Shown one piece after another: positions 11,804 to 30,333 of a stretch of DNA of 64,000 nucleotides (position 1 is the stretch's first letter; the number at the start of each line of letters is the position of its first letter). The notes under the pieces are model-generated. The model saw nothing but the letters and a program-made list of their open reading frames with translations. It was not told the origin of the DNA and ran no database searches. The position numbers and the translations under genes are program-made. The stretch is from Dictyostelium discoideum (taxonomy: Eukaryota): the NCBI GenBank assembly GCA_000004695.1, contig CM000154.2:2944001-3008000 (forward strand), in the 5' to 3' direction.

Positions 11804-11903
11804 NNNNNNNNNNNNNNNNNNNNNNNNNNNNNNNNNNNNNNNNNNNNNNNNNNNNNNNNNNNNNNNNNNNNNNNNNNNNNNNNNNNNNNNNNNNNNNNNN
11901 NNN
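11804..11903. other. Assembly gap (100 N) inside the tandem-repeat/retroelement region
   Basis: Run of exactly 100 n. Confidence 1.
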
Positions 11904-12631
11904 CAATAAAGTAAAAAGATGGCTTTTTAAGATAGTTTATTTATTTATTTATTTGTTTTTTAAGTCTTTTTTATATGAAAAATGAAATAATCAAAAAAAG
12001 AGATTGTTGTTGTTGTTTGTTTTTTTTCGATCTGATTATTTTTTGCTTTTTTTTGAAAATTTTGCTACGCAAAATTCTCAAAACGAAACAAATAATAAAT
12101 TACAATAAAGTAAAAAGATGGCTTTTTAAGATAGTTTATTTATTTATTTATTTGTTTTTTAAGTCTTTTTTATATGAAAAATGAAATAATCAAAAAAAGA
12201 GATTGTTGTTGTTGTTTGTTTTTTTTCGATCTGATTATTTTTTGCTTTTTTTTGAAAATTTTGCTACGCAAAATTCTCAAAACGAAACAAATAATAAATT
12301 ACAATAAAGTAAAAAGATGGCTTTTTAAGATAGTTTATTTATTTATTTATTTGTTTTTTAAGTCTTTTTTATATGAAAAATGAAATAATCAAAAAAAGAG
12401 ATTGTTGTTGTTGTTTGTTTTTTTTCGATCTGATTATTTTTTGCTTTTTTTTGAAAATTTTGCTACGCAAAATTCTCAAAACGAAACAAATAATAAATTA
12501 CAATAAAGTAAAAAGATGGCTTTTTAAGATAGTTTATTTATTTATTTATTTGTTTTTTAAGTCTTTTTTATATGAAAAATGAAATAATCAAAAAAAGAGA
12601 TTGTTGTTGTTGTTTGTTTTTTTTCGATCTC
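11904..12631. repeat. Tandem array of a 199-bp unit (at least 3.6 copies; truncated by the gap)
   Basis: The identical 69-aa ORFs at 11975, 12174 and 12373 are spaced exactly 199 bp apart. Unit sequence: ...caataaagtaaaaagatggctttttaagatagtttatttatttatttatttg...tgttgttgttgtttgttttttttcgatct... It is plausibly the repeated 5' (A-module-like) region of the retroelement. Confidence 0.85.
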
Positions 12632-12679
12632 ATTGTATTCCAAATAATTTTAAGCGTTCCAAATCCCAAATTTCAAAAT

Positions 12680-12750
12680 GGGAGATTAGTTAAGTGGTAT
12701 AATGCTACCTTTGGGTGGTAGCGTCCTGAGTTCGATTCTCGGATCTCCCC
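12680..12750 (+). tRNA. tRNA-Pro (anticodon UGG)
   Basis: GGGAGATTAGTTAAGTGGTATAATGCTACCTTTGGGTGGTAGCGTCCTGAGTTCGATTCTCGGATCTCCCC. Acceptor stem GGGAGAT/ATCTCCC, anticodon stem CTACC/GGTAG, loop TTTGGGT giving anticodon TGG, T-loop GTTCGATTC. Length 71 nt. Confidence 0.9.
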
Positions 12751-12781
12751 ATCTTTTAAGATCCGAAACAATAGATTACAT

Positions 12782-12791
12782 GTTCGATTCC
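12782..12791 (+). promoter_or_regulatory. ex-B box (extra pol III B-box) downstream of tRNA-Pro
   Basis: GTTCGATTCC lies 32 nt 3' of the tRNA end. This is the Dictyostelium-specific external B-box arrangement. Confidence 0.7.
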
Positions 12792-12899
12792 TATATTTAT
12801 TTGGTATTCAAACTCTAATTTTTTAATATTTTAAAAAAAAAAACAAAAAAAATAAAAAAGTTTTTTTGGAGTAATTTAGGGTTGGCAATGTCCCTAGAG

Positions 12900-12932
<33 letters not shown>

Positions 12933-13192
12933 GACCCAAAATGACCTAAAATTTTTTTTTTTGACCCAAGATGACCCAAAATTTTTTAATTTGGCATTAT
13001 TTACTAAAAAAAAAAAAAAAAACTTAAAAAATTAAGAAAAATAAATTTAAAAAAATAGAAAAATTTTGATAAGATATTTTTGTATTCTAAATTTTTGATT
13101 AGTTTTTTTTTTTTTAGGTTTTCTTTTTTTTTTTTTTTTCATCATTTTTTTATATAAAATAAAATTAGATTTATAATTTTTATTCTCAAATC

Positions 13193-13654
13193 ATGATATC
13201 AAATAATAATAATAATAGAATATGTACACTTCATCCAAACAGATTTTTAATGTTTTTTTGTTTGGATTGCCAATTAATTCCATGTTGTGCTCAGTGTACC
13301 TCAGTTTCAGGTGAACATCATGGTCATAAAACTAATGAATAGGATGTGAATCCAAAAATAAATGAAAGAATCGAAGAGGATCAAAAAATATTAAAAGAAT
13401 CAAATGAAAAATTTGATAGAATTAAAACTCAATATGAAACAAATGTGGGAATATTGGAAAGGGAAATTAAAAAAATCCATGATATAGCTTCAATAGTACA
13501 AATAGAGGTCCAGAAAACATTATCGGTAGCTTTTGAAATGAATACATCAATAAATGATAGAATAGCTTTTTCAATCGAGAATGATAATGAAACACTTTCT
13601 AGCGATATGAGTAAAAATATTAGTTTTGATATATTCATTTATATCAGTATTTAA
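13193..13654 (+). pseudogene. B-box zinc-finger ORF (13193-13342) followed in the same frame, after a single TAG, by a coiled-coil ORF (13343-13654). Either a disrupted B-box/coiled-coil gene or a sequencing error
   Basis: [49 protein letters not shown] has a C-x2-H-x8-C-x7-C-x2-C-x6-H-x2-H B-box. TAG sits at 13340-13342. The same frame then reads ...NPKINERIEEDQKILKESNEKFDRIKTQYETNVGILEREIKKIHDIASIVQIEVQK, which has a heptad-like coiled-coil character. Confidence 0.4.
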
Positions 13655-13973
13655 ATGAATGGTTCGATTTTCGTATTCTTTTAATTTTTATGAGGAAAGT
13701 GGAATTAATAGTAATAATAATATTAATAATGATAATAATAATAATAATAATGTTAATGGTAGTAATGAAGAGAGAGAAATCCAAATGGCAATTTAACAAT
13801 CTTTTAGAAGTTTCTATAGCGATATGAGTAAAAATATGGTATGAATGTCCAGAAAGTATTCATTATATATCTGATCTACCATCTGTGGGTCTTATATAAT
13901 AAATTTTATTTTTTTCTAATCAATCATTAGATAAATTTGTAATATTTTTACAATACCAAATTAATGTTATTAT

Positions 13974-14018
<45 letters not shown>

Positions 14019-14323
14019 AATAAACAAGATAAATAAAAAAATAATTAAGTTAAATAAAAATAAAAAATAATTAAAATAATCTTTGATCTATTTTTTTTTT
14101 TTTTTTAACCAAATTTATTTATTGGGAATTTAAAATCAGAAAATTTTTCCCCCCCTTTATTAAATTTTTTTTTTTAAAAAAAATTTCCCAAAGGTAAAAA
14201 TATTAATTTTAAAAATTTAAATAATTTTAAAACCCAAAAATTTCAAAAAAAAAAAAAAAATTTTTTTTTTAACAAAAAATTTTTAAAGGTCAATTAATTT
14301 TAATTTTTTTTATTTAATTGGTT

Positions 14324-14366
<43 letters not shown>

Positions 14367-14705: not shown

Positions 14706-15311
14706 TATGGGAGGGTCTCAAAGTAAAAAATTAACAAAAAAATGTAAGTTTAGTATATATATATATATATTTATTCACAGCGCAGAATAATAATAATAAC
14801 AATAGTAATATTAATGTGACATATAATAATTTAATAATCACAATTAATATAGTAGAACAAAATGAAATCGATAGAATTCAAAGTTTATTTAATGATATAT
14901 CAGTACCAATAAAATCAGTTAAATCAATTGATAGAGATGGATTTAAAAGATTTCATTTAATTCCAGAACCACTATCCGATAGAATATTCAATTTATTTGA
15001 ACAATCAACAAAAAAAGGTGGATCTATGACTTTTGATGATTTATTATCAGGTTTAGCAGTTTGTGGTAAATCAACTGAAAAAGATAAAGTTAATGGTAAT
15101 TATTATTATTATTTTATAATATCATTATAAATTTTAAAATATATTTACTTTTTTTTTTTCAATTTTTTTTTTATTTTTTTTTTTTATTTAGTTATATTTA
15201 AATTTATAGATATTGATGATGATGGTATAATAACAAAAGAAGAGATATCAGTATTATCAGTTGTTTCATTAGAGAATGCAAATTCTCCAAAAATATTCTC
15301 AAATGGTAAAT

Positions 15312-18176: not shown

Positions 18177-18276
18177 NNNNNNNNNNNNNNNNNNNNNNNN
18201 NNNNNNNNNNNNNNNNNNNNNNNNNNNNNNNNNNNNNNNNNNNNNNNNNNNNNNNNNNNNNNNNNNNNNNNNNNNN
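18177..18276. other. Assembly gap (100 N), intergenic
   Basis: Run of exactly 100 n. Confidence 1.
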
Positions 18277-26446: not shown

Positions 26447-26517
26447 GGGGAGATCCGAGAATCGAACTCAGGACGCTACCACCCAAAGGTAGCATTATAC
26501 CACTTAACTAATCTCCC
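26447..26517 (-). tRNA. tRNA-Pro (anticodon UGG), identical copy in inverted orientation
   Basis: The reverse complement of 26447-26517 is identical over 71 nt to the tRNA at 12680-12750. About 30 nt of 5' flank (..GCGTT..AAATC..AATTTCAAAAT) is also conserved. Confidence 0.9.
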
Positions 26518-30233: not shown

Positions 30234-30333
30234 NNNNNNNNNNNNNNNNNNNNNNNNNNNNNNNNNNNNNNNNNNNNNNNNNNNNNNNNNNNNNNNNNNN
30301 NNNNNNNNNNNNNNNNNNNNNNNNNNNNNNNNN
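30234..30333. other. Assembly gap (100 N), intergenic, between the ENY2 and ankyrin-like genes
   Basis: Run of exactly 100 n. Confidence 1.

Follow-up and report, generated by a model that had tools for sequence, protein, structure and literature searches.

In the 64,000 nucleotides of Dictyostelium discoideum DNA that were analysed here (the window), a short open reading frame coding for a B-box zinc finger is followed, after a single TAG codon and in the same frame, by a second open frame coding for a putative coiled coil. The question is how this arrangement has to be understood: as a gene inactivated by a nonsense codon, as a stop codon that is read through, as a small gene in its own right, as the beginning of the next gene or as an error in the sequence.

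The first open reading frame (ORF1) starts with the ATG at position 13193 of the forward strand and runs after 49 codons into the TAG at 13340–13342, as had been read from the letters before. Its residues 6–47 match the Pfam family zf-B_box PF00643 (E=5.1e-10, 39.8 bits) above the cutoff of 24.1 bits, and the Cys/His ligands are complete (C11, H14, C23, C26, C31/C32, C35, H42/H43, and H45). The B-box is 65–67% identical to the B-boxes of its paralogues. Beyond the TAG the frame continues for 103 open codons (ORF2, 13343–13651) up to the TAA at 13652–13654; the sequence-only reading had counted about 100. An open frame of this length downstream of the TAG is far beyond chance, as only 2 of 200,000 mononucleotide shuffles of 13343–13651 were stop-free in this frame, and the remaining two forward frames of the same stretch contain 11 and 18 stops. 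AlphaFold2 predicts for ORF2 a single continuous helix comprising residues 4–102 with a mean pLDDT of 91.7. Thus, the coiled-coil character that had been ascribed to the second frame is borne out at the level of the predicted helix, which may well oligomerise as a coiled coil. Tryptic peptides encoded by ORF1 and ORF2 include IEEDQK, FDRIK, and IHDIASIVQIEVQK.

For comparison we used a second D. discoideum assembly, GCA_054883475.1, a chromosome-scale re-assembly of the same lineage. The corresponding locus on CM142511.1 (L002) was reached via a neighbouring gene of 729 aa; it is the only assembly that was retrieved in this way and it is nearly identical to the window. Over the aligned positions 12563–13974 both sequences agree base for base, including the TAG, except for one T in a T-run at ∼12906. 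Elsewhere nearby the differences are poly-A and poly-T lengths, a few SNPs, and the copy number of a tandem repeat upstream. The window is very AT-rich and contains 100-N scaffold gaps, and all protein matches are to D. discoideum. Three of the gaps are located at 18177–18276, 30234–30333, and 57431–57530; of these, the first two are flanked on either side by sequence that aligns with L002. A separate observation concerns the intergenic stretch ∼14100–14330 of the window, which shows many differences to the positions ∼3770–4000 of L002 (for example, tttttccccccctttattaaa in the window and attattacaccacttaataaa in L002). Identity in this block averages 98.2% and reaches 99.9–100% in the flanking blocks; the block looks low-quality or consensus-smoothed in one of the two assemblies.

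A tblastn search with a conceptual paralogue of 511 aa yielded one match to the locus that extends from 13193 to 13603 through the TAG (46% identity, E=2e-37). Because this single match crosses the stop codon, ORF1 and ORF2 are remnants of one gene, and in intact relatives both parts are found in one chain. The earlier suggestion that a single B-box plus coiled-coil gene has been split by a nonsense codon is therefore confirmed. The joined ORF1 and ORF2 match only four proteins (P0001–P0004), all of them D. discoideum B-box proteins with 41–66% identity. When 1.84 billion representative proteins were searched with a profile, 63 relatives emerged, among them the intact DDB_G0289849 (510 aa) and full-length members in D. 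dimigraforme, D. citrinum, D. firmibasis, and D. purpureum. Three of the three full-length members checked by Pfam (P0005, P0007, and P0014) contain both zf-B_box and FNIP, with E values down to 4.6e-52. From the DNA of L001 and L003, two of the loci behind the four B-box proteins P0001–P0004, the family gene could be reconstructed: it codes for a B-box, a conserved linker, a coiled coil, an N/E-rich linker and, after one intron, four to six FNIP repeats, in total about 510 aa. The family with this order of B-box, coiled coil, linker, and FNIP repeats is found only in Dictyostelium.

A protein search covered 5.8 billion sequences, with those of AX4 and of two further annotated D. discoideum assemblies among them; none of the matches obtained exceeded 50% identity to either ORF. 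Look-ups of the exact proteins for the 49-aa ORF, the 102-aa ORF, and an upstream ORF of 872 aa gave no match. Within the 64-kb window, tblastn of both ORFs returned the locus itself only and no paralogue, and there is no DNA in common between the window and either L001 or L003.

The intact DDB_G0289849 (XP_636010.1, Q54GZ7), whose paralogues are DDB_G0289799 and DDB_G0289777, is located on the same chromosome, ∼320 kb apart from the locus in CM142511.1. Both share the B-box pattern CTLHPN...FFCLDC..IPCC..C...GEHHGH and a helical region with the motif EIKKIHDI, and they are 50% identical over 142 aligned residues. Unlike DDB_G0289849, the locus carries the in-frame TAG, lacks a linker segment of 15 residues, the intron, and the FNIP repeats, and its homology stops at about residue 158. 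As the identity amounts to only ∼50%, the locus represents a separate lineage of old standing rather than a recent copy of DDB_G0289849. A functional protein of the same general Dictyostelium class, with a B-box zinc finger and FNIP repeats, is AreA (DDB_G0279871), which binds Atg101 and is a negative regulator of autophagy (PMC4554924). In contrast to the locus, AreA possesses a DUF4559 domain and FNIP repeats, and the likeness noted here is one of architecture class.

The order of the two frames had been called TRIM-like. As in metazoan TRIM/RBCC proteins, the B-box is directly followed by a long helix, here interrupted by the stop codon, and the ancestral protein is similar in function and structure to that core of TRIM proteins which is formed by B-box and coiled coil. 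The RING and the TRIM-type C-terminal domain, however, are absent from the locus: Pfam finds no N-terminal RING, 10 residues precede the B-box, and the DNA upstream is AT-rich and non-coding. A sequence search of the PDB gave nothing significant, the best hits being the B-box2 plus coiled coil of TRIM28 and TRIM63 (E=0.27–0.33). With the RING domain absent and significant similarity confined to the generic B-box, the locus does not code for a TRIM protein; the B-box followed by a helix stands, and the likeness to TRIM proteins is analogy only.

When the locus is compared with the family part by part (Table 1), the N-terminal B-box has its full Cys/His set and the long helix is present with EIKKIHDI, as seen in invariant alignment columns, in tblastn, and in the AlphaFold helix 4–102. 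What is lacking is the linker behind the B-box (L-E-S-T-S-N-I-L-S-L-M-N-x-F-K), where a gap of 15 residues or 45 nt coincides with the TAG. In the tblastn alignment the conserved segment LESTSNILSLMNNFK is missing exactly at the stop codon. The C-terminal FNIP repeats (PF05725) are likewise missing, and the reading frame is interrupted by the TAG in two assemblies. Because of this in-frame TAG we file the locus as a pseudogene derived from the family and not as a functional member.

Table 1. Positions in the window of the remnants, the lesion, the direct repeats, and the downstream neighbour
Feature	Position	Strand	Evidence
B-box zinc-finger coding remnant, 49 codons	13193..13339	+	Pfam, paralogue identity, alignments
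Lesion junction AAT GAA TAG GAT	13334..13345	+	tblastn gap, blastn gaps versus DDB_G0289849
Coiled-coil (long helix) coding remnant corresponding to family residues ∼75–158, with invariant EIKKIHDI	13343..13603	+	Alignments, AlphaFold
Open-frame tail DMSKNISFDIFIYISI plus TAA, no detectable family homology	13604..13654	+	End of protein alignment, shuffle z=0
21-nt direct repeat TAGCGATATGAGTAAAAATAT, copy 1, starting where family homology ends	13600..13620	+	Sequence comparison
Coding-like, frame-broken sequence: short ORFs in more than one frame and a tract of AAT repeats	13655..13900	+	Composition, three-frame translation
21-nt direct repeat TAGCGATATGAGTAAAAATAT, copy 2, 217 nt downstream, in a different reading frame	13817..13837	+	Sequence comparison
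Downstream multi-exon gene with EF-hand-like and UBA-like segments, starting MGGSQSKKLTKK	14707–∼18150	+	First exon followed by a GTAAGT donor

Aligned by blastn with the DNA of the intact DDB_G0289849, the junction shows gaps of 35 and 10 nt which flank a retained AATGAAT island. On this alignment AAT GAA TAG corresponds to (TT)A ATG AAT A.. of the paralogue, read one base out of frame between a deletion that shifts the frame and a second one that compensates for the shift. The TAG may thus have arisen by two deletions of 35 and 10 nt or, equally possible, by one deletion of 45 nt together with substitutions (TTA/TTG to TAG); the island is too short to choose between these two histories.

All protein alignments end at about residue 137 of the joined ORFs, which is position 13603 and corresponds to about residue 158 of 510 in the family. 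Past this point the nucleotide alignment to the paralogue, calibrated by shuffling, gave z=0 for 13604–13700, z=2.7 for the part with the AAT repeats, and z=0.3 against the FNIP half, none of which is significant when the AAT repeats are taken into account. With permissive settings tblastn past 13603 found only tiny matches or matches driven by poly-N, with the FNIP part of the paralogue it found nothing near the locus, and the downstream ORFs contain neither a Pfam match nor an FNIP repeat. The GC content of 13655–13900 is 20–25%, compared with ∼8–13% in the flanking intergenic DNA. A direct repeat of 20 bp at 13600 and 13812 had been reported; the repeat exists, although it is 21 nt long and its second copy starts at 13817. 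Three further ideas on this region were given up. Excision of the segment between the repeats restores no long frame and leads to ...SDMSKNMV*. The sequence CPESIHYISDLPSV as a relic FNIP repeat and the tail of ORF2 as a frameshifted ENENDRTTTIEKLNEI were both dropped, as the alignments past 13603 are not significant.

Disabling lesions were also found in three sister loci of the same family in other D. discoideum assemblies, each of which is annotated as two or more short "genes". In L003 (ACTFIR_002077; 6001–7626) a TAA lies inside the coiled coil (IISII*LDIKK) and the FNIP repeats are retained. L001 (ACTFIW_009059; 1–1880) has also kept its FNIP repeats; its lesions are a frameshift in the N-terminal part and a premature stop that follows QQSLI. 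In L004 (ACTFIR_002676; 4001–4791) a deletion of 1 nt shifts the frame and leads to a TAG three codons after HGH (after HGHKID), with the coiled coil in another frame. As at the locus, a TAG here splits the B-box from the coiled coil; L004 still has its linker, with no identified FNIP repeats further downstream. All three differ from the locus in the position and the kind of their lesions. Since the lesions occur at different places and are of different kinds, they point to decay and not to a conserved recoding signal, and the decay of the sister loci fits a family that would turn over by birth and death. As a side observation, the AX4 model of DDB_G0289799 (P0003) joins ...MNNFKDDIHQK to EGIAFKDNC... 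and thereby lacks the coiled coil and linker of DDB_G0289849, ∼225 residues; it is possible that this stretch is damaged in AX4 and that the model treats it as an intron of unusual length.

Taken together, we suggest with a probability of roughly 80% that the locus is a truncated, inactivated paralogue, that is a pseudogene relic, of the Dictyostelium B-box/coiled-coil/FNIP family. A nonsense-disrupted gene had been among the possibilities named at the outset and this one is supported, with the qualification that the damage is larger than one codon, as 15 residues, the linker, and the FNIP repeats are gone. The ancestor would have coded for an N-terminal B-box, the conserved linker, the coiled-coil helix, a second linker and, after one intron, the FNIP repeats. 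A loss of 45 nt just behind the B-box would then have removed the 15 conserved residues and left the in-frame TAG at the junction, either by two deletions (35 and 10 nt), between which 9 nt came to be read in a shifted frame, or by one deletion plus point changes. The 21-nt repeat next to 13603 would mark a local rearrangement where homology ends. With the C-terminal two thirds (linker and FNIP repeats) gone, the recognisable gene is reduced to the equivalent of its first ∼158 codons (13193–13603). Translation from the ATG would give at most a B-box peptide of 49 residues, and the helix frame downstream would be left without means of translation. We infer that the locus is non-functional.

The inactivation was probably fairly recent, because there is only one stop in the frame and the zinc ligands are all intact. 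The dS values to the nearest paralogues are 0.55–0.63, and in a simple simulation of AT-biased neutral decay the chance that 153 codons contain at most one stop falls below 6% beyond ∼0.15 substitutions per site. Most of the divergence would thus have accumulated under coding constraint, and either the loss is recent or the sequence is still used. The dN/dS ratio versus the paralogues is about 0.5 (0.49–0.58), which points to weak constraint, yet this value is too intermediate to separate the explanations. The open frame of 103 codons and the intact zinc ligands would also be expected from continued use, from which the rival explanations draw their strongest argument. Searches of the literature on the gene IDs of the paralogues and on Dictyostelium pseudogenes with FNIP repeats returned nothing relevant.

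The first of these rivals is a live gene for a stand-alone B-box peptide of 49 residues, with the former coiled-coil region as its 3′UTR. The ATG is intact, the B-box retains its zinc ligands and scores above the curated Pfam cutoff, the region upstream is AT-rich and promoter-like, and among the annotated genes of other assemblies there are short ORFs (51 and 67 aa) with only a B-box. At least one of these short ORFs, L004, however, is a family member truncated by a frameshift and so a pseudogene that offers no precedent, and the ORF of the locus is absent among the protein matches, which include AX4 proteins. In addition, it ends with TAG, a rare natural terminator in the TAA-dominated genome of D. 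discoideum. We regard a stand-alone peptide as improbable.

Less probable still, and on a par with the fused gene discussed below, is programmed or leaky readthrough of the TAG, which would produce a protein of ∼150 residues with B-box and coiled coil and without FNIP repeats, possibly a short isoform or a dominant-negative partner. ORF2 is open over 103 codons (2 of 200,000 shuffles), its helix is predicted with confidence, the B-box ligands are intact, and the stop is preceded by two A bases, a mildly readthrough-favouring context in yeast. The openness of ORF2 beyond chance, however, is explained equally well by recent pseudogenisation. The 3′ context TAG GAT GTG AAT differs from both the CARYYA and the CUAG type of readthrough-promoting motif, and the TAG sits on the scar of a 45-nt deletion in a segment conserved in the family. 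Moreover, the frame ends in a non-homologous tail with the remainder of the gene missing, and the sister loci carry stops and frameshifts at unrelated positions, which is a pattern of decay. None of the titles and abstracts that a literature search yielded described programmed readthrough for a Dictyostelium gene. The programmed readthrough considered by the sequence-only reading thus finds no positive support, as a known motif is lacking, the stop lies on a deletion scar, and the C-terminal domain is gone. The wider proposal, that readthrough of the TAG is frequent enough to be useful or that the TAG is a polymorphic allele in a gene that is still live, so that a short protein with B-box and coiled coil but lacking FNIP repeats is made, is in our view just as unlikely. 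If it were true, the short protein could hetero-oligomerise via its helix with full-length B-box/FNIP paralogues and modulate them, and the locus would be a naturally truncated "decoy" in a family that includes the autophagy regulator AreA.

A further explanation, to which we give equally little weight, is that the B-box frame (and the coiled-coil frame) are 5′ exons of the downstream EF-hand/UBA gene and that an intron removes the TAG. The automated annotation of GCA_054883475.1 in fact contains a model of 1057 residues (L002 2869..7679) which starts at the ATG of the B-box and ends at the stop of the downstream gene. By exon count the downstream gene accounts for ∼920 aa, leaving by estimate ∼135–147 residues from the locus, so that the 1057-residue model must splice around the TAG. 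On the other side, the downstream gene possesses a canonical first exon of its own, beginning with MGGSQSKKLTKK and followed by the GTAAGT donor at 14707, and an architecture of this kind occurs in no member of the family. An intron that removes the TAG was rejected because the locus offers no in-frame GT...AG pair of plausible Dictyostelium length; the only in-frame option spans ∼39 nt and deletes the last zinc ligands. To join the next gene, ∼1.1 kb would have to be removed as an intron, a length that is very unusual in Dictyostelium. The 1057-residue model is probably a chimeric prediction. A homology search with the downstream neighbour gave no match, and its start MGGSQSKKLTKK is of the N-myristoylation type.

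Finally, that the TAG is a sequencing or assembly error, as had also been considered, can be rejected with near certainty in spite of the four 100-N gaps in the window and the stretch ∼14100–14330 that is unlike the other assembly, since the independent L002 is base-for-base identical over the aligned positions 13193–13974 including the TAG, despite different homopolymer lengths and SNPs.

The surroundings of the locus contain several repeated elements which we note in their own right. A tandem repeat with a unit of 199 bp (11904–12634, 3.7 copies, 99% identity) lies directly upstream of a tRNA-Pro gene and adjoins the N-run 11804–11903. L002 holds at least 11 copies of this repeat (seed matches 185...2176), so the gap in the window hides more copies of the array. 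There are two inverted tRNA-Pro(UGG) genes at 12680–12750 (+) and 26447–26517 (−) which share 161 bp including their flanks with 94% identity. Each has ∼30 nt downstream a second B-box-like element GTTCGATTCC (12783–12792) that looks like the Dictyostelium "external B box", and no TRE retrotransposon adjoins either gene. An Rfam search found tRNA only. The interval that separates the tRNA from the B-box ORF contains 2.2 copies of a 30-nt unit, TTTTTTTTTTTGACCCAAAATGACCCAAAA, at 12922–12987.

The results indicate that the locus is biologically ordinary and involves no new mechanism. Its value lies in annotation, where it ought to be marked as a B-box/FNIP family pseudogene, and together with L001, L003, and L004 it is a further data point for a family with birth-and-death turnover and many disabled copies.
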